NCBI GenBank assembly: GCA_903821875.1
Contig: CAIJMU010000016.1
Location: 36,961 to 100,960, forward strand
Length of the DNA: 64,000 nucleotides
Reading direction: 5' to 3'
Origin: an uncultured Spirochaetota bacterium
GTDB lineage: Bacteria; Spirochaetota; Spirochaetia; Treponematales; Rectinemataceae
Of this stretch, positions 23,057 to 42,601 are shown piece after piece. A program made the position numbers and the translations under genes. The notes beneath the pieces were generated by a model. That model saw only the letters and a program-made list of their open reading frames with translations. It was not told where the DNA came from and made no database searches. Each line of letters begins with the position of its first letter. The stretch's first letter is position 1.

Positions 23057-23740
23057 ATGAGGATTCTCCTGGTGGATTCGGGCCTCTTCCATCCCTCCCT
23101 CCTGGCGCGTTCCCGGCTCCTTGGCCTTCTGGAAGAAACCAAGTGTGAGCAAATCCATCGAGTGGCAGCGCTCTCGGCTCTCCCGAGGGATCTTTCCGCC
23201 TGGAATGTCATAGTGCTGTATTTCCACGCTGCCTCGGCGCCGGAGGCAGCTGTCGCCAGGCTCGAGTCCTTTGTCCGTGCCGGCGGAGGGATCCTGGCCA
23301 TCCATGCAGCTACGGCCTCCTTCAAGAAACAGACGGCCTTCGGGAAGCTCCTCGGGGGGTACTTTGCGGGGCATGACGCGGTGGGCGAGTACCTGCTTGA
23401 GCCTGCCAGCTCAGATAGCCCCTTTGCCGGACTGCCCGCTCTCAGGGTGAGGGACGAGATGTACTTCCATGAAATTGTAGCTGACATTGAGATAGCCTTT
23501 ACGGCAAGGCCCTGGAGCCCCCATGGGCAGGCCGCCGGCCAGCGCGGCAGGCAGCCTGGCGTGAATCCGCCCATACCCGCTGTCTGGACGCGCCGCGTCG
23601 GCGCCGGCCGAGTCTGTTATGCATGTCCGGGGCACCGTGCGGCAACCCTTGACAATGCTGACTATCGAAGAGTCCTCCTTCGGGGGCTGTACTGGGCAGC
23701 CGGCGTGGAAGATCGGGGAGGCGGCCATGGACACTCTTAG
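23057..23740 (+). CDS. ThuA domain protein (trehalose-utilisation-like)
   Basis: MRILLVDSG...FHPS...WNVIVLYFH...GGGILAIHAATASF...DEMYFHE. GGAGG RBS upstream of ATG 23057. Confidence 0.7.
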   Translation: MRILLVDSGLFHPSLLARSRLLGLLEETKCEQIHRVAALSALPRDLSAWNVIVLYFHAASAPEAAVARLESFVRAGGGILAIHAATASFKKQTAFGKLLGGYFAGHDAVGEYLLEPASSDSPFAGLPALRVRDEMYFHEIVADIEIAFTARPWSPHGQAAGQRGRQPGVNPPIPAVWTRRVGAGRVCYACPGHRAATLDNADYRRVLLRGLYWAAGVEDRGGGHGHS

Positions 23741-24743
23741 GCTCGGCATAGCTGGCTGCGGCGACATAGCCGGATTCACTGCCCTCGTTTCACGATTCGT
23801 GCCGGCCCTTCGCCTGACCGCGTCTTGCGACCTCGATGCAGCGCGGGTTTCATCCTTTGCCAGACGCTACGGCATCAAGGCTACCTATACCAATTACGAA
23901 GAAATGCTGCAGTGCGGGGGCATCGACGCCGTCTATCTTGCCGTTCCCCATGACCTCCACCTGCCCATGGCCTGTGCGGCAATCGCGGCGGGCCTTCCTG
24001 TGTTCGTGGAAAAACCCCTCGCCCGCAACCTCCCCGAGGGGAGGAGGCTCGTGGCGGCATCTGAAGCAGCTGGTGTCAAGGTCGGCGTCAATTACCAGTA
24101 TCGCTACGACCGGGCCTGCCATGCCCTCCATGGGCTCCTGGCGGAGGGCGCGCTCGGCACGATCCGCCATGCGCGGATCAACCTTCCCTGGCATAGAGAC
24201 AAAAAATACTTCGAGGCCTCGCCCTGGCACAGGAGCATTTCCCGCGCTGGCGGCGGTACCCTCATCACCCAGGGCAGCCACTTCCTCGATGTGGCCCTCT
24301 GGTCCATCGGAAAGGCCCCGGTCTCGGCCATGGGCTACGTAGCGAGTCCGGGCTTCAAAGCTGATATCGATGTGGAAGTCGATACCCTTGCTGCGGGAAT
24401 CGTCGAGACCGAGGGCGGCGCATTGATCAGTATTAGTTCCTCTATGGTGGCTGCCCGGGAAGGGCGGGTCTCGATCGAGGTCTACGGGGAGAGGGGAAGC
24501 GCTGTCTACACGAACAGGCCCTGGCCACGGCTCGTGGTCAGGGCACCGGGCTTTCGCGCGGCTCGTCAGTCTGGCCCCTGCCTGCCCGGTTTCCACGCCC
24601 TGCAACGGAGCCTTGCCGCCTTCGTCGGCTGGGTCCAGAGCGACCGGCCCTACCTCGTCCCAGCGTCAGAGGCCCTGCCCGTGCTCGCGGCCGTGGACGG
24701 TATCTACCGCTCCGCCGCCTCCGGGAAGAGGGAATTGCTCTGA
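23727..24743 (+). CDS. Gfo/Idh/MocA family oxidoreductase (ThuB-like position)
   Basis: LRLGIAGCGDIAG (Rossmann)...VYLAVPHDLH...VFVEKPLA. Overlaps the ThuA-like gene by 14 nt. Confidence 0.8.
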   Translation: MDTLRLGIAGCGDIAGFTALVSRFVPALRLTASCDLDAARVSSFARRYGIKATYTNYEEMLQCGGIDAVYLAVPHDLHLPMACAAIAAGLPVFVEKPLARNLPEGRRLVAASEAAGVKVGVNYQYRYDRACHALHGLLAEGALGTIRHARINLPWHRDKKYFEASPWHRSISRAGGGTLITQGSHFLDVALWSIGKAPVSAMGYVASPGFKADIDVEVDTLAAGIVETEGGALISISSSMVAAREGRVSIEVYGERGSAVYTNRPWPRLVVRAPGFRAARQSGPCLPGFHALQRSLAAFVGWVQSDRPYLVPASEALPVLAAVDGIYRSAASGKRELL

Positions 24744-24800
24744 TGTGGCGGCCTCCCGAAGCGGGGCGCCGCGTTCAGGATGGAGCTCTCCTGGCCCGGG

Positions 24801-26012
24801 CTACAGGCTGAGTATCTCGTTCCCGAGGAGTTTCTCGATGACGAGGGTCGCCGCTCCGAGGGCACCTGAATCGGAATTGAGGGCGCTTTTAATGATCACT
24901 GTCCTCTGCGCGATCGCATGTACGGCCCTCCGCCTTGCGATGCGTTCGATACCTTCGAGGATGAGGCCGTGCAATTCCTCCACCACCTCACCCGCCAGGA
25001 CTACCGTTCCTGGATCGAATACGTTGATCACGTCCGCAATGCCGATTCCGATGCTCTCCTCGATCTCGGAGACGATGATGTTCGCCAACTTGTCGCCCTT
25101 CTGGGCAGCGCTGCCCACCTGGGTAAGTGTAAGGCCTGCGGACAGATCGACGCTGCCGCCGAGGCTGGTATGCACTCCGGCGACCATCAAGTCCCTCACC
25201 CGATTGAGGATCGCGCCGGAGGAAACGAGGGCTTCGAGGCAGCCATAATTGCCGCATTTGCACAAGGGGCCGTTTTCCTTGACAGTGATGTGGCCGAATT
25301 CGCCCGATGCGCCGTTGACGCCCCGATAGATGCGGTTGCCCAGTATTATTCCCGATCCGACGCCGATGCCGATGTACAGGAAGAGAAAGGTATCCTCGCC
25401 TTTCATGGCGCCATGCCGCTTTTCTGCGAGCGCCATGCATCGCGACACGTCGTCGAGGAGGACCTCGACCCCGAAGCGCTCTTTTACTGTTTTGACGAGG
25501 TGGATGTTTTCCCAACCAGGCAGGCCGGGACAATAGAGCACTACCCCGGAACGGGCGTCGACGAGCCCCGCTACTCCGATGCCGATACCACGGAGCACTC
25601 CGTAATTGCCTGATTCGCAGGCGGCTATCGCCATGGCGATCTCGGACATCAGGAGCTCCTGGAGTGACATCCGGTCATCGGTAGCCACGTCCAACTCTCT
25701 TTGATAGAGAATGGCGTCGTCGAACCCTATAGCGGTGAGGTTCATCCTGCCCGGCTTTATTACTCCGCCAACCGAAAAGCCGTAGCTATCGCAGAGGGCA
25801 ATGGACGATGGCTTTCTTCCCCTGCCCACACTCTGCTGCTGGCTTCCTTCGATGAGAAGTCCCTGAGAGATGAGTTCATCAACGAGGCGTTTGGCCGTCG
25901 CGACGCTCAGGCCGCAGGAATCCGATATCTGGAGTCGCGAAATCGGCCCACGATCGCGGACAGTGTTGAGGATGACCCTGCGATTACGTGCGGCGTTTTC
26001 AATGTGGCTCAG
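24801..26012 (-). CDS. ROK family transcriptional repressor (wHTH plus ROK sugar-kinase-like domain); start codon non-canonical or unresolved
   Basis: ROK motifs: GIGVAGLVD, GEFGHITV, CKCGNYGCLEA. The wHTH RNRRVILNTVRDRGPISRLQISDSCGLSVATAKRLVDELISQGLL is in frame upstream of the first GTG (25829). No ATG/GTG/TTG occurs back to the stop at 26085-26087. CTG 26010-26012 is taken as a provisional start. Confidence 0.75.
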   Translation of the reverse strand: MSHIENAARNRRVILNTVRDRGPISRLQISDSCGLSVATAKRLVDELISQGLLIEGSQQQSVGRGRKPSSIALCDSYGFSVGGVIKPGRMNLTAIGFDDAILYQRELDVATDDRMSLQELLMSEIAMAIAACESGNYGVLRGIGIGVAGLVDARSGVVLYCPGLPGWENIHLVKTVKERFGVEVLLDDVSRCMALAEKRHGAMKGEDTFLFLYIGIGVGSGIILGNRIYRGVNGASGEFGHITVKENGPLCKCGNYGCLEALVSSGAILNRVRDLMVAGVHTSLGGSVDLSAGLTLTQVGSAAQKGDKLANIIVSEIEESIGIGIADVINVFDPGTVVLAGEVVEELHGLILEGIERIARRRAVHAIAQRTVIIKSALNSDSGALGAATLVIEKLLGNEILSL

Positions 26013-26121
26013 CCCCTGGTTGTCGATTCGGTCCTCCTCACAGCCTCGATCATAGCATCTGTTCTTCCTTGTAGAATTGGATAATTAAAGCTCAACTTGA
26101 TTTTATATGACCAAGTTTTTC

Positions 26122-26150
26122 TTGACAAGCGGTTTTATTGGGATTATCGT
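26122..26150 (+). promoter_or_regulatory. Candidate sigma70-type promoter for the 26199-36843 sugar operon
   Basis: TTGACA (26122-26127), a 17-nt spacer, then TATCGT (26145-26150), within the only AT-rich intergenic stretch of the locus (26060-26198). Confidence 0.4.
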
Positions 26151-26198
26151 GAGCTTAAATAAGGATGCATATCCAGAAACTGATGGTAGGAGGCAGTC

Positions 26199-27431
26199 AT
26201 GAACGGTGGGCCTGGGCTTTATAGTTTCGGAGACGAGGAAAGAAAAGAACTCTTGGACGTTATGGAAAGCGGCCATCTTTCGCGCTACGGATCAGAGGAT
26301 GATCCGGCCTTCAAGCGCAAGGTTGCTACCTTCGAACTTGAGTTTGCCTCATTCATTGACGTGAAATACGCAGTCGCGACGAGCAGCGGCACCGGTTCGC
26401 TCATGTGTTGCCTGGCAGCCCTGGGTATCGGGGCCGGAGACGAGGTCATCGTTCCAGGCTATACCTTCATTGCTTCGATCTCCTCGATCATCATGTCCAA
26501 TGCCATTCCTGTCCTCGCCGAAATAGACGAATCCCTCACCATCGATCCCGACGACATCGAAAAGCGCATAACTCCGAGGACCAAGGCCATCATGCCGGTG
26601 CATATGCTGGGCAATCCCTGTGCCATGGACAGGATCATGGCCATTGCGAAGAAGCACAAACTGCATGTCATAGAGGACTGCTGCCAGGCGGGAGGCGCAG
26701 CCTACAAGGGCAGGCGCGTCGGTACCTTCGGCGACATCGCTGCCTTCTCTCTCAATGTCTTCAAGACAATCACGGCCGGCGACGGCGGCGTGGTTGTTAC
26801 CAACGATGAGCGCCTTTATGAGCGGGCCTTCGGCTTTCATGACCAGGGTCACAAGCCCAACCGCATGGGCGTCGAGGTGGGCAATCGGAGCATCGTCGGT
26901 GTGAACATGCGCATCAATGAGCTGACCGGAGCCGTTGCCCTCGCGCAGCTACGCAAGCTCGAGGGCATGCTTGCCACCCTCCACACGAAGAAGGACAGGC
27001 TCAAGAAAGCCCTCGATGGTCTGCCAGGTTTCAAATGGCGGACGATCAATGATGTCGGAGGCGAGTGCGCGACCCTTCTCACCCTGCTTTTCGATACCAA
27101 GGACAGGGCGGAAAGATTCAGCGCGGAAATCGGCGGCAAGCCCCTCGCCTATTCCGGCTGGCATGTCTACAACAACATGGAGCAGGTGCTCAACAAGGTG
27201 ACTGCCTCTGCGTCGAACTGCCCCTACGACTGTGAAAAGCATGGCACTGAGGTTACCTACGCCAAGCACATGCTCCCGAAGACCGACGCCATCCTCGACA
27301 GGGCAGTCAACATCTCGGTCGGTGTCGTCGACAAGGGCCTGGGCTCGGGCTTTGGAATCAACATCAAGTCGAGTGATGCCGAAATCGCCTCCGTGGCGGC
27401 GCGCCTGACCGGCATTCTCAAAGCATTATAA
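26199..27431 (+). CDS. DegT/DnrJ/EryC1/StrS family PLP aminotransferase (copy 1)
   Basis: SGTGSLMCCLAALGIGAGDEVIVPGYTFIAS...VIEDCCQA...FSLNVFKTITAGDGG (PLP-Lys). AGGAGG RBS. Confidence 0.85.
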   Translation: MNGGPGLYSFGDEERKELLDVMESGHLSRYGSEDDPAFKRKVATFELEFASFIDVKYAVATSSGTGSLMCCLAALGIGAGDEVIVPGYTFIASISSIIMSNAIPVLAEIDESLTIDPDDIEKRITPRTKAIMPVHMLGNPCAMDRIMAIAKKHKLHVIEDCCQAGGAAYKGRRVGTFGDIAAFSLNVFKTITAGDGGVVVTNDERLYERAFGFHDQGHKPNRMGVEVGNRSIVGVNMRINELTGAVALAQLRKLEGMLATLHTKKDRLKKALDGLPGFKWRTINDVGGECATLLTLLFDTKDRAERFSAEIGGKPLAYSGWHVYNNMEQVLNKVTASASNCPYDCEKHGTEVTYAKHMLPKTDAILDRAVNISVGVVDKGLGSGFGINIKSSDAEIASVAARLTGILKAL

Positions 27432-27471
27432 GTACCGACAGACCTGTGGCATGGTTCAAGGAGGGGCGGGA

Positions 27472-28626
27472 ATGGAAAGGATAAAAGCCGGCATAATTGG
27501 GATGGGCTTTATCGGCGTAAGCCATGTCGAGGCCATTCGCCGGATAGGCTTTGCCCAGCTCGTGGCGGTCGCGGACGCCAATCCGGCCCTGGCCCAGGCC
27601 AAGGCCAGCGAATACGACATCCCGAAGTGCTATGCGACGGTCGAGGAGCTGCTGGCCGACCCCGAGATCAGCGTTGTGCATAACTGCACGCCCAACAACC
27701 AGCACCTCGAGATCAACGAGAAGATCATCCGCTCGGGCAAGCACGTGTTTTCGGAAAAGCCCCTGGGCATGACGAGCGTCGAGACCCGGAAGATGCTCGA
27801 TCTTCTTGCCGCGAATCCGCGCATCGTGGGCGGAGTGAACTTCAACTACCGCATGAATCCCCTCGTGCAGGACATGAAGAACCGCGTGAGGAAGGGGGAT
27901 ATCGGCACAGTCAATCTCGTCCACGGCTCCTATCTGCAGGACTGGCTTCTCTACGATACCGATTACAACTGGCGCGTCGAGCCCGAGGTGAGCGGCCTGT
28001 CCCGCTGCGTCGCCGACATCGGCTCCCACTGGATGGACATTGTGCAGACGGTGACCGGCCTTAAGATCGTCGAAGTCTGCTCGGACCTCTTCATAGCCCA
28101 TCCGGTCAGGAAAAAGCCCAGGGGGCAGGTCGAGACCTTCAGCATCAACACCAATGCCGACTTCGAGCCGAAAAAGGTCAGCACCGAGGACTATGGCGCC
28201 GTCCTCATCAAGTTCGACAGCGGTGCGCATGGAGTCTTCCATGTTTCCCAGATCAGCGCGGGCAGGAAGTGCCATTTCAATTTCGAGATAGACGGTACTA
28301 CATCATCCTTCTACTGGAACCAGGAAACTGCCGACCACATGTGGCAGGGCTCGCGCGACGGCTACAACAGCCAGATCATGCGGAACCCGAATCTCATGAC
28401 GCCCGAGAGCAGGCCCTATTCCTATCTTGCTGCCGGGCATCCAGAGGGCTGGAACGACGCGATGAAGAACAACGTCTATGCCATGTACAAATTCATAGCA
28501 GACGGCAGGGACATGCGAAAGGACAAACCTGACTTCGCTGTTTTCGAGGACGGACACTACATAACGAGACTTGTCGAGGCGATCCTCGAGAGCAATGCGG
28601 AACGACGTTGGGTAACGATCAGCTAG
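27472..28626 (+). CDS. Gfo/Idh/MocA family oxidoreductase
   Basis: MERIKAGIIGMGFIGVSH...VHNCTPNNQH...VFSEKPLG. AAGGAGG RBS before ATG 27472. Confidence 0.85.
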   Translation: MERIKAGIIGMGFIGVSHVEAIRRIGFAQLVAVADANPALAQAKASEYDIPKCYATVEELLADPEISVVHNCTPNNQHLEINEKIIRSGKHVFSEKPLGMTSVETRKMLDLLAANPRIVGGVNFNYRMNPLVQDMKNRVRKGDIGTVNLVHGSYLQDWLLYDTDYNWRVEPEVSGLSRCVADIGSHWMDIVQTVTGLKIVEVCSDLFIAHPVRKKPRGQVETFSINTNADFEPKKVSTEDYGAVLIKFDSGAHGVFHVSQISAGRKCHFNFEIDGTTSSFYWNQETADHMWQGSRDGYNSQIMRNPNLMTPESRPYSYLAAGHPEGWNDAMKNNVYAMYKFIADGRDMRKDKPDFAVFEDGHYITRLVEAILESNAERRWVTIS

Positions 28627-28644
28627 ATTCTTGAAGGAGGCTCT

Positions 28645-29676
28645 ATGTCGATGTTCAGGTTTTCTGTAGGTCCATGGAACGTGCACAGCGGTGCGGATGC
28701 CTTTGGTCCCGAGGTCCGCTCGGAGATCCCCTTCGCCGACAAGGTGAAACGCTTCAAGGAGATCGGGTTTGACGCGGTGCAATTCCATGACGACGACGCC
28801 GTGCCGGACATGAATGACCTTTCCGATGCGCAGATACGGGCCAAAGCCAAGGCTACCCGGAAAATCCTCGAAGACAATGGCCTTGTAGCGGAATTTGTCG
28901 CCCCACGCCTGTGGATGGACAGGCGCACGATCGATGGCGGCTATACCTCCAATTCGGCCAAGGAGAGGGAGTTCGCGGACTGGCGCTCGCTGCGTTCGAT
29001 CGATATCGCCAATGAGCTGGGCTGCGACAAGATCGTGTTGTGGCTGGCCCGCGAGGGAACCCTTTGCTACGAAAGCAAAGATGCAATTACAAGTGTCCGG
29101 CGCATCCTTGATGCGATCAACAAGATGCTCGAATACGACAAGAAGATCAAAGTACTCATAGAGACCAAACCCAACGAGCCGGTGGACATCAGCTTCTGTC
29201 CGACCATGGGCCACGCCCTCGCCCTGTCAGCGGCATCGGTCGATCCGAATCGCGTTGGAGGCCTCCTTGAAAGCGCCCATGCGATGCTGGCGGGCCTCGA
29301 TCCCGCCAACGAGATAGCCTTCGCCCTGACCTTCGGCAAGCTCTGGGGTGTCCACCTGAACGACCAGAATGGTCTCAAGTTCGATCAGGACAAGGCTTTT
29401 GGCGTGCAGAATCTCAGGACAGCATTCAACCAGGTCAAGGTCCTCGTCGAGAACAACTACGGATCGAAGGGCGAGTATGTAGGCCTCGACGTCAAGGCCA
29501 TGCGCACGCAGCCCCAGGAGAATTCCTACAGGCACCTCGAGAACAGCCTGAAGATCGCCAAGATGCTCGAGGAAAAGGCCAAGAAATTCGACTACGCCTT
29601 CCAGAAGAAGTGCGTCGAGACCCGCGACTACGAAGCCCTCGAGATGTATGTGCTCGAATTGCTCATGAAGGGTTGA
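28645..29676 (+). CDS. Xylose-isomerase-type (class-I-like) metal-dependent sugar isomerase, TIM barrel
   Basis: The motif order matches class I xylose isomerases: FSVGPWNV, FHDDDAVP, IETKPNEP, ESAHAMLAG, VHLNDQNG, FDQDKAFG, GLDVKAMR. The counterparts of the catalytic His/Asp/Lys and all metal ligands appear to be present. At 343 aa it is shorter than typical XylA. Confidence 0.7.
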   Translation: MSMFRFSVGPWNVHSGADAFGPEVRSEIPFADKVKRFKEIGFDAVQFHDDDAVPDMNDLSDAQIRAKAKATRKILEDNGLVAEFVAPRLWMDRRTIDGGYTSNSAKEREFADWRSLRSIDIANELGCDKIVLWLAREGTLCYESKDAITSVRRILDAINKMLEYDKKIKVLIETKPNEPVDISFCPTMGHALALSAASVDPNRVGGLLESAHAMLAGLDPANEIAFALTFGKLWGVHLNDQNGLKFDQDKAFGVQNLRTAFNQVKVLVENNYGSKGEYVGLDVKAMRTQPQENSYRHLENSLKIAKMLEEKAKKFDYAFQKKCVETRDYEALEMYVLELLMKG

Positions 29677-29688
29677 GGAGGACCAACT

Positions 29689-30978
29689 ATGACCTATACG
29701 AAACAGGATCTGGCCCTGAACGGGGGGCCGAAGGCGAAGACCTCGCCGACAATCCCGATGTTTCCAGGCGGCCTTGAAATAGGCGACGAGGAAAAGAAGG
29801 AAGTAATGGAGGTGCTGGACAACAAGTACCTCTTCCGCTACTACGGCCCGACGGATTCTCCCTCCAAGGTAAAGGCCTTCGAAGAGTCTTATGCGGAATA
29901 TCTTGGGACGAAGCACAGCCTTGCGCTCAACTCCTGCACCTCCGCGCTGGTCAGCGCCCTGGTCGCAGTCGGCGTCGGCCCCGGCGACGAAGTCATCGTT
30001 CCGGCTTACACCTTCTTCGCCACCTGCGCCGCAGTCGTCGCAGCACGCGCTATCCCCGTCGTGGCGGAGGTCGACGCCTCCCTGACGATGGACCCCCTGG
30101 ATCTCGAGAAGAAGATCACAAAGCGTACTAAAGCCATCATCCCTGTCCACATGCGGGGCATGCCGGCGAAGATCGACAGGATCATGGAGATCGCCCGCAG
30201 GCACAAGCTCAAGGTGATCGAAGACGTCGCCCAGGCCAACGGTGGCAGTTTCAAGGGGAAGCCCCTCGGATCCTTCGGCGATGCCGGCTGCTTTTCCCTG
30301 CAGTTTCACAAGACCATCACCTCAGGGGAGGGCGGAGTGCTCGCGACCAGCGATGACCTCACCTATACCCGGGCCCAGGCCTACCACGACGTAGCAGCCT
30401 GCTGGCGCAAGGACCGCTTCGCCCCTCCTGAATTCGCGGGAGAAATATTCTTCGGCGTCAATTTCCGCATGAGCGAGCTCACCGGGGCCGTCGCCCTGGC
30501 CCAGTTCAGGAAACTCGACTCCATCGTCGGACGGATGAAGCACAACAAGAAGCTCATCAAGGACAGGCTCCTAGATCTGAAGGGAATCCAGTTCCGAGAG
30601 GTGACCGACGAGGCCGGAGACACCGCAACCTGCCTCATTTTCTTCCTGCCGAAGGGTAGCCAGGTCTCTGATTTCACCACGGCCCTCCACGCCGAGGGAA
30701 TCGAGGCAGGGGGCATCTACAACAAGGGTGTGCCCGACTGGCATATGTACCCTCACTGGAAGATGCTCATCGAAAAGATGATGCCGACCGACAAGGGCTG
30801 TCCCTTCAATTGTGAGCAAAGCGGTCCAGCACCCAATTACGATCCCGATGCCTGTCCACAGACAATGGGCCTGCTCGAACGCTCGATCCACCTGGATATC
30901 CCTCCGCAGCTGTCGGAAAAGGATTGTGAGCAGATAGCCCTGGGCATCCGCAAGGTCGCTTCGGTGCTTCTCGCGTGA
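29689..30978 (+). CDS. DegT/DnrJ/EryC1/StrS family PLP aminotransferase (copy 2)
   Basis: NSCTSALVSALVAVGVGPGDEVIVPAYTFFAT...VIEDVAQA...FSLQFHKTITSGEGG. Paralogue of 26199-27431. Confidence 0.85.
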   Translation: MTYTKQDLALNGGPKAKTSPTIPMFPGGLEIGDEEKKEVMEVLDNKYLFRYYGPTDSPSKVKAFEESYAEYLGTKHSLALNSCTSALVSALVAVGVGPGDEVIVPAYTFFATCAAVVAARAIPVVAEVDASLTMDPLDLEKKITKRTKAIIPVHMRGMPAKIDRIMEIARRHKLKVIEDVAQANGGSFKGKPLGSFGDAGCFSLQFHKTITSGEGGVLATSDDLTYTRAQAYHDVAACWRKDRFAPPEFAGEIFFGVNFRMSELTGAVALAQFRKLDSIVGRMKHNKKLIKDRLLDLKGIQFREVTDEAGDTATCLIFFLPKGSQVSDFTTALHAEGIEAGGIYNKGVPDWHMYPHWKMLIEKMMPTDKGCPFNCEQSGPAPNYDPDACPQTMGLLERSIHLDIPPQLSEKDCEQIALGIRKVASVLLA

Positions 30979-31012
30979 ATGACGGCCCGATTCAGGGCAG
31001 CTACAAGGAGAC

Positions 31013-31831
31013 ATGATGGTCCAGCTCAGCGTGTGCATCGAACCCTTTTTCTCGGACCTGCCATACGCGGAGCGTCTGAAGCGGATCGCCGGGCTGGGGT
31101 TCAAGGCCTATGAGTTCTGGTTTCATGACAAGCGTTTTGACGGCAAGGGTCTGGTTGCAGAAACGAAGGATTTCGACCAGATTGCGGAGCTCAACTCGAA
31201 GTACGGACTAGTTGCAAACGATTTTGTCTTCAACCACCCTGACGGCGGAGTCGTGGCTTCGCTTATCGACAAAGGGGACAGGGCGAAACTCCTGGATTCG
31301 GTGGAGGGCATGATCGCTCTGGCGAAAAAGATTGGCTGTCGCAAGCTCATCAGCGGGAGTGGAAACAAGGTTCCAGGCCTTCGTCGCGAAGATGCACTGG
31401 AAAGCATGACAGAAGGCCTCTCCCTTCTGGCCAAGGTCTGTGAGAAAGAAGACATAACCTTGATAGTCGAGCCCTTCAATTCCCGGGTCGACCATCCTGA
31501 TTACTTTCTCGATAACCCTGAGACCTGCGTCGAAGTCCTCCGTGCCGTGGGCAGTCCGAATGTAAAAATGCTCTTCGACATCTACCACATGCAGATCATG
31601 TACGGAAACATCCTTTCCTTTGTAAAGGCCAATCTCGACTTCATCGGGCACTTCCACGTGGCGGGAATCCAGGGACGGCACGAACCCTTTCCCTGCGAAC
31701 TGGACTTCGCCTTCATTTTGAATACAATAGATGCCATGGGCTACTCGGGTTACTTTGGCCTCGAGTACTGGCCGAGCACGGATGCGGGCAAATCACTCGC
31801 AGACACGAAAAAGCTGCTTGCAGGACCATGA
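31013..31831 (+). CDS. Hydroxypyruvate-isomerase-like / sugar phosphate isomerase-epimerase TIM-barrel protein
   Basis: 272 aa: SVCIEPFF...GFKAYEFW...LIVEPFNS...DIYHMQIM...GHFHVAG. Typical Hyi/AP-endonuclease-2 TIM-barrel layout. Confidence 0.7.
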   Translation: MMVQLSVCIEPFFSDLPYAERLKRIAGLGFKAYEFWFHDKRFDGKGLVAETKDFDQIAELNSKYGLVANDFVFNHPDGGVVASLIDKGDRAKLLDSVEGMIALAKKIGCRKLISGSGNKVPGLRREDALESMTEGLSLLAKVCEKEDITLIVEPFNSRVDHPDYFLDNPETCVEVLRAVGSPNVKMLFDIYHMQIMYGNILSFVKANLDFIGHFHVAGIQGRHEPFPCELDFAFILNTIDAMGYSGYFGLEYWPSTDAGKSLADTKKLLAGP

Positions 31832-31877
31832 AGAAGGGTTGCTTCAAGGCGCGATATCCGCGCGGAAGGACGAGTCA

Positions 31878-32702
31878 ATGAACGACCGGGAAATCCGCTT
31901 CGAAATGATGCGGCCTGCCCAGCTCCGAGAGGAGCTGGCTCGGGCACCGCTGGTATTCCTCCCTGTCGGTCCGCTTGAGTACCACGGTCCACACCTGCCG
32001 CTCGGCATGGATCCAATCAATGCCCGGCTTTGCGCGGAAGAATCCTGCAGGCGGCTCGGCAAGGGCGTGGTCATGCCTACCCTCTATATCGGGACCGAGC
32101 GCGAGAGGCCTGACTGGATGCTGGAGAGCCTCGGGTTCAAGAAGGGCGATTGGGTAGTGGGAATGGATTTCCCCACCTGCACCTGGACGAGCCATTACTA
32201 TCAGGAGCATCTATTCGGACTTATGGTCGCCTCCACCGTGGAGATGCTCATAGGTCAGGGCTACAAGGCCATCGTCATCGTGAATGGCCATGGGGCCTGG
32301 AACCAGCTTGAAACCCTCGAAAGGCTGGCCAGGCATTACTCTCACACTACTGACGTGACCGTGGTCTGGAAGCTTGCGGTGGTGCTCGACATCTCTGAAA
32401 AAAACCTCATGGGCCACGCCGACCTGGGCGAGACTTCGATCATGCTTCACTACGAGAAGGAGTTCCTTGGCGGACAGAAGGTCGTCGACCTCGCCGCGCT
32501 GCCGGCGCGCGAAGTCCCCTTGCACTACAAGGATTTTTCCATTGTCGACGGGCCGGGTTTCAGTGACCATCCTGCGCAGGACAAGGTTGTCAGGATGGAT
32601 CCGCGCGACTCCACTGCGGAAAAGGGAAAGAGGATATTCGAGGACACGGTCGCAATGTACGTGGACCTCGCCGGCAAGGCCTTGCAGGGGCAGGGCCAAT
32701 GA
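31878..32702 (+). CDS. Creatininase-family amidohydrolase
   Basis: LVFLPVGPLEYHGPHLPLGMD and VIVNGHGAW motifs. Start at internal ATG 31878. Confidence 0.75.
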   Translation: MNDREIRFEMMRPAQLREELARAPLVFLPVGPLEYHGPHLPLGMDPINARLCAEESCRRLGKGVVMPTLYIGTERERPDWMLESLGFKKGDWVVGMDFPTCTWTSHYYQEHLFGLMVASTVEMLIGQGYKAIVIVNGHGAWNQLETLERLARHYSHTTDVTVVWKLAVVLDISEKNLMGHADLGETSIMLHYEKEFLGGQKVVDLAALPAREVPLHYKDFSIVDGPGFSDHPAQDKVVRMDPRDSTAEKGKRIFEDTVAMYVDLAGKALQGQGQ

Positions 32703-32792
32703 TTGGCTGACACGGCTCCGTTGGGGCTGATATCGGCGGATGCCTGGGGAAGAAAGGGAAAACCCGGCTCCGGAGGGAAACTAGGAGGCACA

Positions 32793-34079
32793 ATGATGAG
32801 ACGCGTTCTGTTATTCGCATTGGCGTTCGCGATTGCGCTGGCTGCAAGCGGCGCTCCCAAGATCGTTCTCTACCACTACCATTGGTCCGAGACGGTTTAC
32901 GACCAGATCAATACCAATGCGGTGAAAAAATTCATGGCAGACAATCCGGGCGTAGAGGTCAAGATGGTCCTCCTTCCGGACGGCGACCGGGTGAACATCA
33001 TCCGCACCGTCCTCGCTGCGGGCGGCTCCATCGATTCCTTCGCCCTCAACAACGGAGAGGCTGCGGAGTTCCTGAGCGCCGGCATGGCAGTTCCGCTTGT
33101 TCCTTCAGCCTTCGGAAAGAAGAGCGTAACTGACGTAGTCAAGATGTGGAATCCCGGCGCCATCGAAACCTGTGGCGGCTATTGGGATGGCCAGTACTAT
33201 GGCGTTCCCTTTGAGCTTTCCAACTATGTCGGATGGATCAACATCGCCGACATGAAAGCCGCAGGCCTTAATCCGGCCAAGGACAAGCCCAAGACCTGGG
33301 AGCAGTTCGCCACGGTTGGCAAGAAACTCATGCAGGTTCAGAATGGCACGACCGTCCGCAACGGCTTCATGGCCAACTCGAAGCAGGGAGTCTTCAGCTT
33401 CCTTGTGCTCACGAACATGATGGAGCAGCTCGGCCTTGACTGGGGCACCGAAAAGGGCCTCGTAGCTTCGATGGACCAGACCGCAGTGCTCGAGCGCGGA
33501 ATCAAGACCTACACCGATTTCGTGACGAGCAGCAAGATCTGGGATCCCGCCCTCGCCGACAATGATCGCGAGGGATTCGGCAACAACAAGACCGGCATGT
33601 TCCTTACCGGTGGAACCTGGTACTGGGGCGTCCTCGACACCTACTCGGTCAAGCGTGCCGACGTCGAGCCCTTCCCCTATCCCCGCTTCGCGGATGGCAA
33701 GGACATCGGCGGCGTCGGCTATGGCTACTGCCTCTATGTGTCCAAGTTCTCCAAGAATCCCGAGATGGCCTTCAAGCTTCTCGACGCCCTTGCCAGCCAG
33801 CCCAACGAGTTCATCAAGCAGGGCTATCACCAGCCCCGCATGACGCTCTCGAACGGAAAGCAGGCCCTCGATCCGGCCCTTGCGAAAAAATTCATTCCGT
33901 ATTACGACGAAGTATTCAAGGGCGAGCTCGCCAAGACGGCTGTCTGGCTTTCTTCCACCAAGGGTGGACTCGTTACGGACGCAGCCTGGCAGGCCGTTTC
34001 CGGCGTGATCTACCAGGGCAGCTCGGTCCAGGATGCCGTAGCCCAGCTCCAGGACGAGATCAGGAACATTTACAAGTAG
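32793..34079 (+). CDS. ABC transporter substrate-binding protein (carbohydrate-type, family 1)
   Basis: Signal peptide MMRRVLLFALAFAIALAASG, AGGAGG RBS and a 428-aa SBP-like sequence. Immediately upstream of two MalF/MalG-type permease genes. Confidence 0.8.
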   Translation: MMRRVLLFALAFAIALAASGAPKIVLYHYHWSETVYDQINTNAVKKFMADNPGVEVKMVLLPDGDRVNIIRTVLAAGGSIDSFALNNGEAAEFLSAGMAVPLVPSAFGKKSVTDVVKMWNPGAIETCGGYWDGQYYGVPFELSNYVGWINIADMKAAGLNPAKDKPKTWEQFATVGKKLMQVQNGTTVRNGFMANSKQGVFSFLVLTNMMEQLGLDWGTEKGLVASMDQTAVLERGIKTYTDFVTSSKIWDPALADNDREGFGNNKTGMFLTGGTWYWGVLDTYSVKRADVEPFPYPRFADGKDIGGVGYGYCLYVSKFSKNPEMAFKLLDALASQPNEFIKQGYHQPRMTLSNGKQALDPALAKKFIPYYDEVFKGELAKTAVWLSSTKGGLVTDAAWQAVSGVIYQGSSVQDAVAQLQDEIRNIYK

Positions 34080-34096
34080 TATCAGGGTTCTTAGTA

Positions 34097-34130
34097 CTGT
34101 CCCCGCCTTCATGAGGCGGGGACAGTTTTT
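34097..34130 (+). terminator. Rho-independent terminator/attenuator between the SBP and permease genes
   Basis: Perfect 11-bp stem CTGTCCCCGCC / GGCGGGGACAG, 7-nt loop TTCATGA, followed by TTTTT. Confidence 0.8.
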
Positions 34131-34146
34131 GAAGGGGAAATGAGAG

Positions 34147-35034
34147 ATGCGAAAAGCCAGCTACTCGGTGAACAGTCTCCAGAAGACCGGCTATGTCTTC
34201 ATTCTTCCGACGATCATCATATTCTCGATCTTCCTCATATACCCGATGATCAGCGCTTTTTGCCTTTCTTTCTTCGACTGGAACCTTCTCAACCCCATGA
34301 AATTCGTGGGCTTCAAGAACTTTGTGAGCATGGCGGGGGATGGGCGCGTCATCAATTCCTATGTGGGCACCCTGCATTTCAGCCTCATCTCGGTCATGGC
34401 GATCAATGTCCTGGCTTTCCTTTTTGCCATGATGCTGAGCAGTCGGCTGATACAGTACAAGAACTTCCTCCAATCCCTCATCTTCCTGCCCGTCATCCTG
34501 TCCATCGTGGCGGTGGGAGTCGTATGGGAGTTCATGTTCCAGTCCACGGGCCTGATCCCCATCATCCTCAGGAAACTCATCGGTATCAGCCCCGCCTGGC
34601 TCACGAAGTCGAGCGCGGCACCCTACGCGATCATAATCGTCTATGTCTGGAAATCGGTTGGCTACTACATGGTCATCTACATCGCTGGGCTCATGGATAT
34701 TCCCGTCACATACTACGAGGCGGCGCGCATCGATGGGGCTGGGTTCTGGAGCCAGCTCTTCTACATCACGATTCCCAATCTGCGCAACACGATAGCCCTG
34801 GGAGTAATCTCCTGCATCATCTTCACCTTCGGGCAATTTTCCCTTCAGTACGTCATCACCAAGGGGGGACCAGCCCGGTCCACAGAGGTACTGTCCCTCC
34901 TCATTTTCAAGGAAGCCTTCGAGTTCAGCAAATTCGGCTACTCGGCTGCGATATCGGTCCTGTTCTTCCTGACGCTCCTTGTCTTCTCGGTTTTCCAGCT
35001 GCGGCTCTTCAAGTCCGGTGCGGTGGGGGAGTAG
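34147..35034 (+). CDS. Carbohydrate ABC transporter permease (MalF-type)
   Basis: 295 aa, multi-TM: KTGYVFILPTIIIFSIFLIYP...YYEAARIDGAGFWSQLFYITIP (EAA loop). Confidence 0.85.
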   Translation: MRKASYSVNSLQKTGYVFILPTIIIFSIFLIYPMISAFCLSFFDWNLLNPMKFVGFKNFVSMAGDGRVINSYVGTLHFSLISVMAINVLAFLFAMMLSSRLIQYKNFLQSLIFLPVILSIVAVGVVWEFMFQSTGLIPIILRKLIGISPAWLTKSSAAPYAIIIVYVWKSVGYYMVIYIAGLMDIPVTYYEAARIDGAGFWSQLFYITIPNLRNTIALGVISCIIFTFGQFSLQYVITKGGPARSTEVLSLLIFKEAFEFSKFGYSAAISVLFFLTLLVFSVFQLRLFKSGAVGE

Positions 35035-35038
35035 GCTG

Positions 35039-35884
35039 ATGACCTCATATCGATTCAGGGAGAGGGTGCTGCGGGCCATCCTCTATGTCTTGATCGCCGC
35101 CCTCGGAGCGGTCTTCGTCTTCCCCTTCCTCTGGATGATCATCTCCTCGTTCAAGCTCAACCGGGATGTCCTGGCCATTCCCATCAGGTTCTTTCCGCCC
35201 GAATGGAACTGGATGAGTTATGTGAATGTTTTCACTAAATTCCCGGACTTCAATTTCCCGAGGCTCATCCTCAACAGCCTGGTTGTCACGACCATCGCGG
35301 TACTGTTCTGCCTCTTCCTCGCCGCTACCGCCGGCTATGGTTTTGCGAAATACAGGTTCAAAGGGAACAATGTCCTGTTTACGATAGTACTGGCTACCAT
35401 GATGATTTCCTTCGAAGCCATTGTCGTCCCGCTCTTCATCCTTGTGCGTCAATTGGGCATGCAGAACAACTACTGGGGTCTGATCATACCTGAAAGCCTC
35501 ACTGCCTTCGGGGTCTTCATGATGCGGCAGTTCTTCTATGCCCTTCCCAACGACTATATCGAAAGTGCGCGCATCGACGGCGCAAACGAATACACTATCT
35601 TCGTCAAGCTCGGCCTCCCGATGGCCAAGACCGCCCTCCTCGCCCTCGTCATCTTCCATGCCCAGTGGGTCTGGAACCTCCTGCTTTGGCCCATGATCGT
35701 CATGTCGAACCCCGACATGAGGGTCCTGCCCCAGGGGATCGCCCTCTTCAAGGGTGGTTATAATACCCCCTATCCGGAGCAACTGGCAGTAAGCGTGATC
35801 GCCTGCCTTCCCATCCTCCTCCTCTATATTTTTCTTTCCAAGTATTTCGTCAAGGGCATCGCCATGACCGGTCTGAAAGGCTAG
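35039..35884 (+). CDS. Carbohydrate ABC transporter permease (MalG-type)
   Basis: 281 aa from ATG 35039: FPFLWMIISSFK...YIESARIDGANEYTIFVKLGLP (EAA loop). Confidence 0.85.
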   Translation: MTSYRFRERVLRAILYVLIAALGAVFVFPFLWMIISSFKLNRDVLAIPIRFFPPEWNWMSYVNVFTKFPDFNFPRLILNSLVVTTIAVLFCLFLAATAGYGFAKYRFKGNNVLFTIVLATMMISFEAIVVPLFILVRQLGMQNNYWGLIIPESLTAFGVFMMRQFFYALPNDYIESARIDGANEYTIFVKLGLPMAKTALLALVIFHAQWVWNLLLWPMIVMSNPDMRVLPQGIALFKGGYNTPYPEQLAVSVIACLPILLLYIFLSKYFVKGIAMTGLKG

Positions 35885-35895
35885 GAAGGATCGAT

Positions 35896-36843
35896 ATGCG
35901 TGTAGTCGTGATCGGTGGAAGCGGACATATCGGGTCGTACCTGATACCCAGGCTGGTAGCCTTTGAACATGAGGTCTTCTGTGTGACGAGGGGCGAAAGA
36001 AGTCCCTATGTGGCTTCCCGCGCCTGGGAAAAGGTTTCGATGGTTGTCGCGGACCGCGAACTTGAAGACTTGGCCGGAACCTTCGGAAAGCGTATCGCAG
36101 CCCTAAAGGCCGATGTCGTCATAGACCTCGTGTGCTTCGATGAGGGGAGCGCCCGCCAATTGCTGGAGGCGCTCCGGGGACGCATTCGTATGCTCCTCCA
36201 CTGTGGCACGATCTGGGTCCATGGACACAGCGCCGTGCTGCCGACGTCGGAACTGCAACCCCGCCATCCCTTCGGGGACTATGGGATCAAAAAGGCAGCA
36301 ATAGAAGCATATTTATTGGAAGAAGCCGGCAGCCGCGGATTCCCTGTTTCGATCATCCACCCGGGGCACATAGTGGGCCGGGGATGGTGGCCGCTGAATC
36401 CGGCGGGGAACTTCAACCCGGAGGTATTCCAGAATCTGGCCCGAGGGAAGGATATCTCCCTGCCCCACCTCGGACTTGAGACTGTCCATCATGTGCATGC
36501 CGATGACCTTGCCTGGGCCTTCATGGCAGCGATGTCGAGCGCTGGACGGGCTATCGGGGAGAGTTTCCACATTGTATCAGGAAAGGCCCTGACCCTGCGC
36601 GGCTACGCCGAGGCTGTCTCGCGCTGGTTTGGCCAGACGCCATCGATCAGCTTCCACTCCTGGGAAGCCTTCCGTGCTGGCTGCTCAGAGGCGGATGCTG
36701 CCGCCAGTTGGGACCACATCGCCCATAGCCCCAACTGCAGCATTGAAAAGGCTGCGAATCTGATCGGCTATCACCCCCGGTATACCTCGCTCGAGGCGGT
36801 GTTCGATTCGCTCGAATACATGCAGGGCAAGGGACTCCTGTAG
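35896..36843 (+). CDS. NAD-dependent epimerase/dehydratase (SDR) family protein
   Basis: MRVVVIGGSGHIGSYL Rossmann motif; 315 aa. Confidence 0.75.
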   Translation: MRVVVIGGSGHIGSYLIPRLVAFEHEVFCVTRGERSPYVASRAWEKVSMVVADRELEDLAGTFGKRIAALKADVVIDLVCFDEGSARQLLEALRGRIRMLLHCGTIWVHGHSAVLPTSELQPRHPFGDYGIKKAAIEAYLLEEAGSRGFPVSIIHPGHIVGRGWWPLNPAGNFNPEVFQNLARGKDISLPHLGLETVHHVHADDLAWAFMAAMSSAGRAIGESFHIVSGKALTLRGYAEAVSRWFGQTPSISFHSWEAFRAGCSEADAAASWDHIAHSPNCSIEKAANLIGYHPRYTSLEAVFDSLEYMQGKGLL

Positions 36844-36864: not shown

Positions 36865-37941
36865 TCAGCCGGGCAGGGCCGACGGCGGCAGACCTCCGAT
36901 GTCAAAGCGCTCCGAAACATACTCAGCTAATTCATTTCTTTTGAGACGGGCGACGGTCACTTCGATTTCGCTGATGTCGGATTCTCCTGGTCCAAGGCAG
37001 GCAGCCCCCGAGTGGGCTTCTATCTCACAGAAAGCGCGATCTCCCTTTCCCGGATCGCTGTAGGCCTGGGCAGCATCTCCATTCATGAGCGCTTCCGTAC
37101 CCATGTGGCTGGGCTTGTCGAGATAGACGCCAGCGGGATCCACGGCAAAGCGCATCGCCACGAGAAGATACGAATTGCGATCGCTTCCTGTTATGCTTGA
37201 CCTGCGGATGTGGAGGACCGTCCCATTTGAGTCCTTTGCCCCCAGGCCGACCTTGTATCTCGAGCCTCCGCGGACCCTGAGCCAGGCCCATTTTCCGCTC
37301 AGGCCTGAGACTCCAGGCGGCAAGGCTACAAAGTAGGGCCTGAGGCAGGAGTCGCCTTCTGCGTGCATCGAGGTAAGAGCGAAAAATACCGTGCCCACTT
37401 CTGCACAGGGAAGCTGGAGAATCGACCAGAGGCCAATGCGCTGGTCGACGGTCGAAGTGCCCAGGTTCCTGACCTCGTGCCTGAAATCGAAGACCAGCGT
37501 TGCGGGATGAGCCGGGACCTTTTCCGACAGTCTCATGCTGCGGGTAATGGAAATGGGGAACCTCGCTCCGTCGGCCGCTGAGGCTTTAAGCACCGTGCAG
37601 TAGTTCCGCCACCCAGTGAGGGCTGAAATAGCCTCATAGTTACCCGGATCGAGGTCGGGGGGCACCCCCCAATCCAGGCCGTCGGAGGAAAAGAAGAAAG
37701 CCCCAGGGCCGGATTCAGGGGCAAGCCAGGTCCTCATTCCGCCGGCATTGCCGCCCTTATCCCAAGGGCCTTGCGACAGCTCGGGCGAAACCCAGAAGGC
37801 GTTTTCCTCGTCGATGCCAGCTCCCATGATGCGCGCCCCGAGGCCAGGCGCGACAAGCATCCAGCGGGACCCGGATTCGACGAGGTCGAAGGCAAGTCCG
37901 GAAGCCTCGAGCAATGCGATGAGTCCCAGTTTCGTCAGCAT
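36865..37941 (-). CDS. Hypothetical protein (possibly aldose-epimerase-like beta-sandwich); last gene of the operon
   Basis: 358 aa from ATG 37941, 10 nt after the PIG-L stop. GGNAGGMRTWLAPE resembles the GG..W.APE segment of DUF4380-type proteins. The assignment is weak. Confidence 0.45.
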   Translation of the reverse strand: MLTKLGLIALLEASGLAFDLVESGSRWMLVAPGLGARIMGAGIDEENAFWVSPELSQGPWDKGGNAGGMRTWLAPESGPGAFFFSSDGLDWGVPPDLDPGNYEAISALTGWRNYCTVLKASAADGARFPISITRSMRLSEKVPAHPATLVFDFRHEVRNLGTSTVDQRIGLWSILQLPCAEVGTVFFALTSMHAEGDSCLRPYFVALPPGVSGLSGKWAWLRVRGGSRYKVGLGAKDSNGTVLHIRRSSITGSDRNSYLLVAMRFAVDPAGVYLDKPSHMGTEALMNGDAAQAYSDPGKGDRAFCEIEAHSGAACLGPGESDISEIEVTVARLKRNELAEYVSERFDIGGLPPSALPG

Positions 37942-37951
37942 TATGACGATC

Positions 37952-40002: not shown

Positions 40003-40015
40003 CGGAGCTATTCCG

Positions 40016-40786: not shown

Positions 40787-40831
40787 GGCTTGACTCCTTG
40801 TGTCGAGATGCCAGAAAAGGCATAGCTACGA

Positions 40832-42519: not shown

Positions 42520-42601
42520 GAAGCTACTTTGCTCCGGCGCTGGGAAGGCTGTCAAATGGATTCACTCCGCATGATGGTTCTGCGCGGGGCTGCCGAGGGC
42601 G

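Follow-up and report, generated by a model that had tools for sequence, protein, structure and literature searches.

A candidate amino-sugar catabolic locus with two DegT aminotransferase modules in an uncultured spirochaete

Organization of the DegT operon

A 64,000-nucleotide stretch of contig CAIJMU010000016.1 from an uncultured Spirochaetota bacterium of the family Rectinemataceae (the window) contains a tightly packed plus-strand operon of ten genes (positions 26199-36843), which lies behind a divergent ROK-family regulator. The operon encodes two DegT-family aminotransferases (DegT-1 and DegT-2), a Gfo/Idh/MocA oxidoreductase (GfoB), a xylose isomerase (XI)-like protein, a Hyi-like triosephosphate isomerase (TIM)-barrel protein, a creatininase-family hydrolase, the binding protein and two permeases of a putative ATP-binding cassette (ABC) importer, and a short-chain dehydrogenase/reductase (SDR) (Table 1). 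The locus is most likely a catabolic system for N-substituted amino sugars, with a transaminase-first route of which a literature search gave no description.

Pfam scans and the open reading frame (ORF) map confirmed every gene named in the original prediction, together with their order, and intergenic gaps of 4-90 nt agree with its view that the genes from DegT-1 to the SDR form one long operon. Strong AGGAGG-type ribosome-binding sites had been described for almost all of these genes. Such sites precede five of the ten operon genes (DegT-1, GfoB, the XI-like protein, DegT-2 and the binding-protein gene); the sites before the Hyi-like protein, the creatininase-family protein, both permeases and the SDR are weaker. 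The G+C content of individual operon genes is 0.54-0.60, below the 0.62-0.65 of the flanks.

Table 1. Genes and sites of the DegT locus and its surroundings in the window.
Feature	Position	Strand	Basis and remarks
ThuA-family protein	23057-23740	+	PF06283, E 7e-26
Gfo/Idh/MocA oxidoreductase, ThuB-like position	23727-24743	+	PF01408, PF22725, PF02894
ROK-family (NagC/Mlc-like) transcription regulator	24801-26027 (about)	-	PF00480, E 6.5e-57; divergent from operon
Divergent promoter-like site TTGTCA-17-TAAAAT	26128-26100	-	consensus match 10/12; overlaps plus-strand site
Promoter-like site TTGACA-17-TATCGT	26122-26150	+	consensus match 10/12; 48 nt 5' of DegT-1
DegT-1, KdnA-like pyridoxal phosphate (PLP) sugar aminotransferase (module A)	26199-27431	+	PF01041, E 5.6e-83
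GfoB, Gfo/Idh/MocA oxidoreductase, 384 aa (module A)	27472-28626	+	Pfam; proposed keto-/aldehydo-sugar reductase
Class-I XI-like protein, 343 aa (module A)	28645-29676	+	proposed aldose-ketose isomerase
DegT-2, second KdnA-like aminotransferase (module B)	29689-30978	+	PF01041, E 3e-81
Hyi/OtnI-like TIM-barrel isomerase (module B)	31013-31831	+	PF01261, E 9e-36
Creatininase-family metal amidohydrolase (module B)	31878-32702	+	PF02633, E 1e-31; proposed N-deacylase; start corrected to 31878
CUT1-type extracellular solute-binding protein	32793-34079	+	PF01547 (SBP_bac_1)
ABC permease 1	34147-35034	+	PF00528 (BPD_transp_1), E 6e-13, this frame only
ABC permease 2	35039-35884	+	PF00528; start corrected to 35039, 4 nt after permease 1 stop
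Extended SDR (NAD epimerase/dehydratase family), last operon gene	35896-36843	+	PF01370, E 2e-17
DUF6786 protein	36865-37986	-	PF20583; remote relative of TTE1925-type mutarotase-like family
PIG-L/LmbE-family N-deacetylase 1	37952-38689	-	PF02585; AHPDD motif
EIIC-GAT permease	38656-40002	-	PF03611
PIG-L/LmbE-family N-deacetylase 2	40016-40786	-	PF02585; CHPDD motif
SIS protein	40832-41485	-	NCBIfam GmhA-like SIS domain
ROK kinase	41482-42555	-	NCBIfam ROK glucokinase family

Two KdnA-like aminotransferases

DegT-1 and DegT-2 are 40-43% identical and match PF01041 with 279.6 and 273.8 bits, respectively, against a Pfam cut-off of 19.8. The best match of both in the Protein Data Bank (PDB) is KdnA (5K8B), which aligns over the full length with E-values of 6e-79 (DegT-1) and 9e-76 (DegT-2); NtdA is also among the PDB relatives of DegT-1 (E 1e-35). 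Lys189, Asp160 and Gln163 (DegT-1 numbering), which we take to be the PLP residues from the family motifs S-x-x-x-x-K and E-D-x-x-Q, are invariant in nine sequences spanning both DegT types. The retention of this lysine, aspartate and glutamine indicates that both proteins are of the transaminase type and not of the dehydratase type. The dehydratases ColD and E1 carry a His in place of the Schiff-base lysine.

None of the NCBIfam equivalogs reaches its cut-off for either DegT protein. An assignment of the DegTs as KdnA itself, the 8-amino-3,8-dideoxy-D-manno-octulosonate (Kdo8N) transaminase, was rejected on this ground, and no KdnB-type alcohol dehydrogenase or lipopolysaccharide (LPS) gene was seen in the scanned ORFs. 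The JGI label 'Kdo8N transaminase' carried by relatives is based on similarity only.

At least 4947 proteins are related to DegT-1 at E<=1e-60. Those with 56-75% identity come from Clostridia, Treponema, Actinomycetota, Atribacterota, Bacteroidota, Planctomycetota, Anaerolineae, Aminicenantes, Verrucomicrobia and some archaeal bins. DegT-2 forms its own orthologous group of at least 2658 proteins at E<=1e-100, with 70-95% identity among the best 120 listed. The two groups are distinct and highly conserved (56-90% identity), and they comprise thousands of members from more than ten phyla. A Cys-Pro-x-x-Cys motif (for example, NCPYDCEKH and GCPFNCEQS) is conserved in the C-terminal part of both groups (27200-27431 and 30750-30978 in the window), and a Bacteroidota subgroup of DegT-1-like proteins lacks it.

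The module A partners GfoB and the XI-like protein

The start of GfoB is most likely the ATG at 27472, because a GGAGGAG sequence lies within the longer ORF. GfoB aligns end to end with the NCBIfam levoglucosan dehydrogenase model (NF052479, 1-386 of 386), with 170 bits against a cut-off of 650. In the PDB it is closest to 4H3V and 6A3F (E about 1e-38), and it is also related to scyllo-inositol/L-glucose dehydrogenase (5YA8) and DgpA.

The XI-like protein is a true relative of class-I XI, as judged by sequence comparison. Its best PDB match is the Streptomyces XI (E 3e-44), with which it is colinear over 311 residues, and its best NCBIfam match is xylA_Arthro (TIGR02631; 190.8 bits, cut-off 447). 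Residues are numbered as in the Streptomyces rubiginosus XI, and the positions were checked in the alignment. Ten of the eleven catalytic, metal-binding and substrate-binding XI residues are kept (His54, Asp57, Glu181, Lys183, Glu217, His220, Asp255, Asp257, Asp287 and Lys289); nine of these belong to the ten residues of the two-metal site and catalytic set. The exception is the metal-1 ligand Asp245, where the family has His. Together with an Asp in place of Gly248, this His forms part of a family-specific VHLNDQ motif, which is conserved in 17 of 21 members (the window protein and orthologues in loci L019-L089 of the comparison below), and the C-terminus is approximately 45 residues shorter than in XI. 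Members of this family never occur with xylB and always adjoin DegT and Gfo genes.

The module B partners and the importer

The Hyi-like protein scores 150.8 bits with the hydroxypyruvate isomerase model (cut-off 353.45), 133.6 bits with the 2-oxo-tetronate isomerase OtnI (325) and 67.9 bits with IolO (300), reaching none of these cut-offs. The creatininase-family protein matches its Pfam model with 110.6 bits against 31.3, and the E34-x-H36...D45, NGHG and GHAD..ETS motifs are all present. An identification of this protein as the 3-dehydro-scyllo-inosose hydrolase IolN (NF041098) was rejected at 29.6 bits against 245; only model positions 4-71, which hold the N-terminal metal motif, were aligned.

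The importer is represented by a binding protein and two permeases. The start of the binding protein is an ATG at 32793/32796 preceded by AGGAGG. Its PDB relatives are distant only (E about 1e-14), and orthologues with 47-77% identity are found in L039, L058, L061, L063 and L094; permease 2 is up to 80% identical in L061 and L094. No ABC ATPase gene was found within the operon; the search did not extend to the rest of the genome. Sharing of an MsmK-type ATPase is common. On the same strand, permease 1 is overlapped by an ORF of nearly 300 codons (34140-35039), a His/Pro/Arg-rich artefact with no Pfam match, which was discarded. A length-based ORF caller could choose this artefact over permease 1.

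None of the operon enzymes comes close to the curated cut-off of an NCBIfam equivalog. The SDR at the end of the operon is lineage-specific, with no homologue in the 80 related loci described below.

Two separable modules are conserved in other genomes

Eighty genome loci with 10-kb flanks (cited by L numbers) were compared by tblastn with all window proteins; their ORFs were clustered and the recurrent clusters annotated. Ten contexts of DegT-1 or DegT-2 orthologues with precomputed Pfam annotation were added.

Module A consists of DegT-1, GfoB and the XI-like protein, usually in the order DegT, Gfo (384 aa) and XI-like (343 aa), with GfoB orthologues of 53-70% identity directly 3' of the DegT-1 orthologues. 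In the 19 loci with at least 64% identity to DegT-1 and at least 5 kb on both sides, GfoB or XI-like orthologues are present in 17; 14 have an XI-like gene, 11 have any Gfo gene and 8 have a PIG-L or creatininase-family gene. Module B consists of DegT-2 and the Hyi-like protein, usually followed by the creatininase-family gene and the CUT1 importer. The Hyi-like gene always lies directly 3' of DegT-2 orthologues, and the pair occurs in at least seven loci (L019, L032, L045, L051, L061, L112 and L113). The creatininase gene is linked to the transporter genes in L039, L058 and L094. The block of DegT-2, Hyi, creatininase, binding protein and two permeases forms an independent operon in L112, where DegT-2 is 83% identical, and occurs also in L061. 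Module A stands alone in most Clostridia loci and module B in L112 and L113; the window operon is a head-to-tail fusion of these separable modules. Both DegT types occur together in Actinomycetota (L045), Lachnospiraceae (L032), other Bacillota (L019/L051) and a second spirochaete family (L110/L111).

The recurrent neighbours comprise deacylases, regulators, importers and kinases. A PIG-L deacetylase is present in 12 of 40 loci with DegT-1 identity of at least 64%, and M20 or M28 peptidase-type deacylases also recur near the modules. LacI (12 loci) and ROK (7 loci) regulators are joined by AraC regulators and glycoside hydrolases; ROK regulators flank orthologous modules in L023, L039, L056, L058, L063, L094, L098 and L113. 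CUT2 importer parts occur in 7 to 9 loci, with a binding protein that is strongly ChvE-like (E 1e-92). A mutarotase-like family accompanies DegT-1 in 12 of the 80 loci, Mannitol_dh genes occur in 9 loci, PfkB kinases in three clusters of 8, 6 and 4 loci, glutamate dehydrogenase in 5 loci and a GH3-CE4 fusion in 8 loci (Bacteroidota and others). In a cultured Pleomorphochaeta sp. (L063), DegT, DUF6786, ROK, Gfo, XI, two PIG-L genes and a CUT1 binding protein are grouped.

Relatives located beside nucleotide-sugar or glycosyltransferase genes would have spoken for biosynthesis. Neither the ten annotated contexts nor the recurrent neighbour clusters of the 80 loci contain a glycosyltransferase or nucleotidyltransferase gene, and no such domain was found among the window ORFs scanned over 18465-42555 or in ten more ORFs up to 57015. 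A plasmid collection yielded only homologues of approximately 40% identity (rhizobial and Roseibium), which lie in exopolysaccharide (EPS), non-ribosomal peptide synthetase (NRPS) or heptose biosynthetic clusters and are not orthologues.

Several related operons carry additional families. MTTB (up to three per locus) and URO-D (up to six per locus) homologues lie inside operons that also carry DegT-1 or DegT-2 together with Gfo and XI-like or Hyi-like orthologues in L013, L020, L024, L029, L099, L100, L110, L113 and L114, which belong to Clostridia, Actinomycetota and spirochaetes. In L113, an MTTB gene occupies the exact position held by the creatininase gene in the window. No corrinoid-protein gene was found near the MTTB and URO-D homologues in these loci. 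In L020, L024, L029, L058, L072 and L081, DegT-1 is neighboured by a 444-aa relative of the sulfoquinovose isomerase SftI (149 bits over the full length, below the cut-off), often with a PotD-like binding protein and MTTB. The MTTB and URO-D homologues within these operons and the SftI-like protein suggest that some relatives may handle N-methylated or C6-modified substrates.

A convergent operon with deacetylases and a kinase

Downstream of the SDR, a minus-strand operon (36865-42555) converges on the DegT operon. Its two PIG-L proteins score 87.8 and 75.6 bits against a Pfam cut-off of 28.2, and 99 and 96 bits with the NCBIfam equivalog BshB1 (the best match of N-deacetylase 1), whose cut-off of 182.5 is not reached. 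Profile-profile comparison by hhalign relates DUF6786 to the DegT-1-associated mutarotase-like family (98.6% probability, E 1e-15, 270 columns); BLASTP and single-sequence hhalign gave weak matches only. The mutarotase-like neighbour family itself had no match in the PDB. DUF6786 genes adjoin DegT loci in the Pleomorphochaeta sp. (L063) and in L112. This homology, together with the presence of DUF6786 beside other DegT loci, suggests that the convergent operon and the DegT operon are probably one functional unit. The convergent operon would supply the deacetylases and the kinase that the DegT operon lacks.

A DUF4380/TTE1925-type mutarotase-like protein of the DegT-1-associated family also stands at the expected GalM place in the galK-galT-galE operons of Caloramator sp. 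E03 (L101) and Paenibacillus sp. J31TS4 (L102).

A proposed transamination route for an imported amino sugar

Genomic context and sequence comparison, all of it computational, point to a repressor-controlled catabolic system of two modules for an imported N-substituted amino sugar or small amino-glycoside, to which we assign a probability of approximately 0.62. That the locus is catabolic and not biosynthetic had been proposed from the window, and the orthologue contexts bear this out: they contain importers, repressors, deacylases and kinases and lack glycosyltransferase and nucleotidyltransferase genes. The suggested order of deacylation, transamination, reduction and isomerization likewise recurs as a conserved core elsewhere (PIG-L or creatininase-family protein, DegT, Gfo and XI-like protein).

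The steps below are drawn from family chemistry and conserved gene order. The compound would be taken up by the ABC system, and the creatininase-family amidase and/or the neighbouring PIG-L deacetylases would strip the N-acyl group to expose a primary amine. Each KdnA-like DegT protein would pass the amine to a 2-oxo acid and yield a keto or aldehydo sugar, the carbonyl of which GfoB (or the SDR) could reduce to a hydroxyl with NAD(P)H. The class-I XI-like and Hyi-like enzymes would perform aldose-ketose or keto-isomerizations, and a kinase would feed the product into glycolysis; the neighbouring ROK kinase is the candidate here and a PfkB kinase in other genomes. The ROK regulator would keep the operon repressed as long as neither the substrate nor an intermediate is present. 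By analogy, this logic is that of the hydroxyl-ketone-amine pairs of amino-sugar biosynthesis (NtdC/NtdA, WbpB/WbpE and KdnB/KdnA) run in reverse on a free sugar.

The amino-sugar part of the substrate class proposed from the window fits better than its cyclitol part. An amino-aldose is favoured by the retained XI residues, the ChvE-like binding proteins, the mutarotase-like proteins and the N-acetylglucosamine (GlcNAc)-type substrates of PIG-L enzymes. Two options stand level and ahead of the rest, each somewhat short of an even chance: a hexosamine-type (2-amino) sugar released from its N-acetyl form, and a 3-, 4- or 6-amino-deoxy, or diamino, sugar. Some other class has a slim chance, and an aminocyclitol a slimmer one.

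Several points weigh against this interpretation. The direction of flux is read from context only, and the B. subtilis ntdABC genes are a biosynthetic DegT/Gfo pair that also has a LacI-type regulator and a transporter. Since every enzyme falls short of the NCBIfam equivalog cut-offs, the individual activities are guesses at the level of the family. Genes for a kinase, an ABC ATPase and glutamate dehydrogenase are all absent inside the operon. Below 64% identity, DegT-1 relatives are only weakly linked to GfoB and XI (3 of 20), and the embedded MTTB and URO-D genes are covered only by the ad hoc assumption of N-methylated substrates. The presence of two aminotransferases with one importer is also unaccounted for; a diamino sugar, two epimers or two unrelated substrates are possible.

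Alternative interpretations

A broader proposal, which we regard as unlikely, is that the DegT-isomerase modules represent a widespread, undescribed pathway of anaerobes that would unmask, transaminate and isomerize terminal (omega-)amino-deoxy sugars or amino-polyols with acyl- or methyl-masked nitrogen. KdnA-like DegT proteins would convert R-CHOH-CH2-NH2 to an alpha-hydroxy aldehyde, which XI-like, Hyi-like and SftI-like isomerases could turn into a ketose. The N-acyl group would be taken off by PIG-L, creatininase-family, M20 and M28 enzymes, and the N-methyl group by the MTTB and URO-D homologues. If this is correct, N-methylated or N-acylated amino sugars would constitute an abundant natural class whose use by microbes has so far gone unrecognized.

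Slightly less likely again is the fusion of two independent pathways, in which modules A and B would each serve a different amine compound, that of module B perhaps being a non-sugar small hydroxy-amine whose aldehyde product is isomerized by the Hyi-like enzyme. The solitary occurrence of each module described above is consistent with this scenario, as are the nearest named families of the Hyi-like enzyme, Hyi and OtnI, which act on C3-C4 hydroxy-oxo acids, and the PotD-like binding proteins or amino-acid permeases in some relatives. However, at least seven loci, drawn from four phyla, have both DegT types within 10 kb of each other and in most cases only one importer, and the modules in the window are under one predicted promoter and one regulator.

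Aminocyclitol catabolism is improbable. A DegT protein would turn scyllo-inosamine or a diaminocyclitol into an inosose, after which Gfo, an IolN-like creatininase and an IolO-like Hyi protein would run the Thermotoga-type anaerobic inositol route to uronates. The weak matches of the creatininase-family and Hyi-like proteins to the IolN and IolO models are in keeping with such a route, and so are the scyllo-inosose aminotransferases among the PDB relatives of the DegT proteins, the relationship of GfoB to the scyllo-inositol dehydrogenase 5YA8, and the Mannitol_dh-family and PfkB genes of related loci, which are possibly UxuB-like and KdgK-like. The IolN match is nevertheless confined to the N-terminal metal motif, and Hyi and OtnI score higher than IolO; the Thermotoga IolN/IolO reading was rejected as the main model on these scores, which are far below the cut-offs. 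The XI-like protein keeps the ring-opening His/Asp and the catalytic Lys that are typical of aldose substrates, the import in some relatives involves a ChvE-like aldose-binding protein, and mutarotase-like proteins act on anomeric centres that cyclitols lack. Known PIG-L substrates are also GlcNAc-type compounds.

Least probable is biosynthesis. On this reading, the DegT/Gfo pairs would produce a kanosamine- or neotrehalosadiamine-like amino sugar, starting from a sugar that is either imported or internal, in the manner of B. subtilis ntdABC. In its favour, DegT enzymes almost invariably serve biosynthesis, the PDB relatives of the DegT proteins include NtdA, the plasmid homologues of approximately 40% identity lie in biosynthetic clusters and a gene of the trehalose-utilization family ThuA is located nearby. 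Against it, the annotated contexts lack phosphatase, glycosyltransferase, nucleotidyltransferase and exporter genes and contain importers that depend on binding proteins, along with deacylases, PfkB kinases, glutamate dehydrogenase and glycoside hydrolases, and a predicted aldose-ketose isomerase is conserved in the core.

Comparison with known systems

The NtdC-NtdA (B. subtilis), WbpB/WbpE and IolG/MosB systems resemble the window in combining a Gfo dehydrogenase with a DegT PLP aminotransferase for hydroxyl/ketone/amine interconversion on a sugar. These systems serve biosynthesis, and their substrates are sugar phosphates, nucleotide sugars or inositol. In contrast, the window pair is accompanied by importers, deacylases, an XI-like isomerase and kinases, without phosphatase or nucleotide-sugar genes, a setting that implies the reverse direction on a free sugar. 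KdnA acts on a free, non-nucleotide sugar, at a terminal carbon. KdnB is the usual partner of KdnA. Unlike KdnA, the window DegT proteins are partnered by Gfo, XI-like and Hyi-like proteins, with no LPS context or KdnB-type partner in the scanned ORFs.

The levoglucosan LgdA/B, BT2157-2160 and C-glycoside DgpA/B/C pathways share with the window a Gfo enzyme and XI-fold TIM-barrel proteins. However, these oxidative 3-keto-glycoside pathways have no aminotransferase, and their TIM barrels are lyases or hydratases that are not close relatives of XI. The archaeal/Thermococcus chitin and NagA/NagB routes share with the amino-sugar route proposed here an initial de-N-acetylation, for which the archaeal route uses a PIG-L-family enzyme, followed by loss of the amine and entry of the carbon into glycolysis. 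Those routes proceed by phosphorylation and then an isomerizing deaminase, whereas transamination of the unphosphorylated sugar is proposed here. The Thermotoga maritima set IolG/IolM/IolN/IolO, with Gfo dehydrogenases, a creatininase-family hydrolase and an XI-fold TIM-barrel epimerase, is akin to that of the window, and the downstream Mannitol_dh and PfkB genes of window relatives are a further likeness. The Thermotoga inositol pathway nevertheless lacks a DegT protein, and the window evidence for an aldose substrate speaks against a cyclitol.

A literature search found no description of a catabolic DegT/Gfo/XI module; PMC8121099, considered as a possible description, proved irrelevant. DegT-family aminotransferases are textbook biosynthetic enzymes. 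If the proposed route is correct, a catabolic DegT role on free sugars would be a new entry of amino sugars into central metabolism, and deamination by transamination before phosphorylation would be an alternative to NagA/NagB-type chemistry. Thousands of genes that lack annotation at present, from gut, rumen, termite, digester and sediment bacteria in over ten phyla, would likewise gain a function. The repeated association with MTTB and URO-D may reflect additional chemistry. The modules are compact (three to six genes), encode soluble enzymes and have at least two cultured carriers, Pleomorphochaeta sp. DL1XJH-081 (L063) and Atrimonadaceae G-SL-SR-0-11 (L039), so that the hypothesis is directly testable.

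The regulator, the ThuA/Gfo pair and the accessory setting

The best NCBIfam match of the ROK regulator is NagC, with 221 bits against a cut-off of 650. Its frame is open to 26051, and the entire helix-turn-helix (HTH) domain lies upstream of any ATG, GTG or TTG (25830-26051, minus strand). An ATC codon (26027-26025) sits 5 nt behind an AGGAGG sequence (26038-26033). The HTH domain without a standard start codon and the position of this ATC therefore suggest a non-canonical start. Both promoter-like sites between the regulator and DegT-1 (Table 1) are consensus matches only, and an operator search of the control region (26020-26200) found no inverted repeat of 8 nt or longer.

Upstream of the regulator, the ThuA-family protein is coupled to a second Gfo protein, whose likely start, an ATG at 23727 preceded by GGGGAGG, overlaps the ThuA stop. 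The domains and the stop/start overlap correspond to the arrangement of a putative ThuA/ThuB-type 3-keto-disaccharide system. This pair had been included in the proposed pathway, a membership that the comparison did not sustain: none of the 80 related loci has a counterpart of the pair, no ThuA homologue was found in any of them, and they hold only Gfo proteins of 25-29% identity to the ThuA-coupled one. The pair probably adjoins the conserved system without being part of it.

The genome assembly comprises 193 contigs, and full orthologues of the locus occur in only two same-genus genomes among 40 relatives. Window positions of approximately 17-43 kb are common to only one same-genus genome, which places the locus in accessory DNA. 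In the other three, good alignment begins only at approximately 43.4 kb. No clean insertion site could be defined for the island boundaries, and the restricted sharing extends over the whole of approximately 17-43 kb and not just the operon. This accessory stretch of approximately 26 kb (about 17000-43400), present in one of five same-genus genomes, contains a transketolase/aminotransferase operon, a GH57-like gene, the ThuA/Gfo pair, the DegT operon and the PIG-L/EIIC operon.

In other genomes, the GH3-CE4 (polysaccharide-deacetylase) fusion of approximately 1035 aa lies beside DegT-1-like genes in L057, L060, L062, L067, L070, L071, L082 and L086, often with PfkB, M28, BNR_2 or GH30 genes and an amino-acid-type permease.

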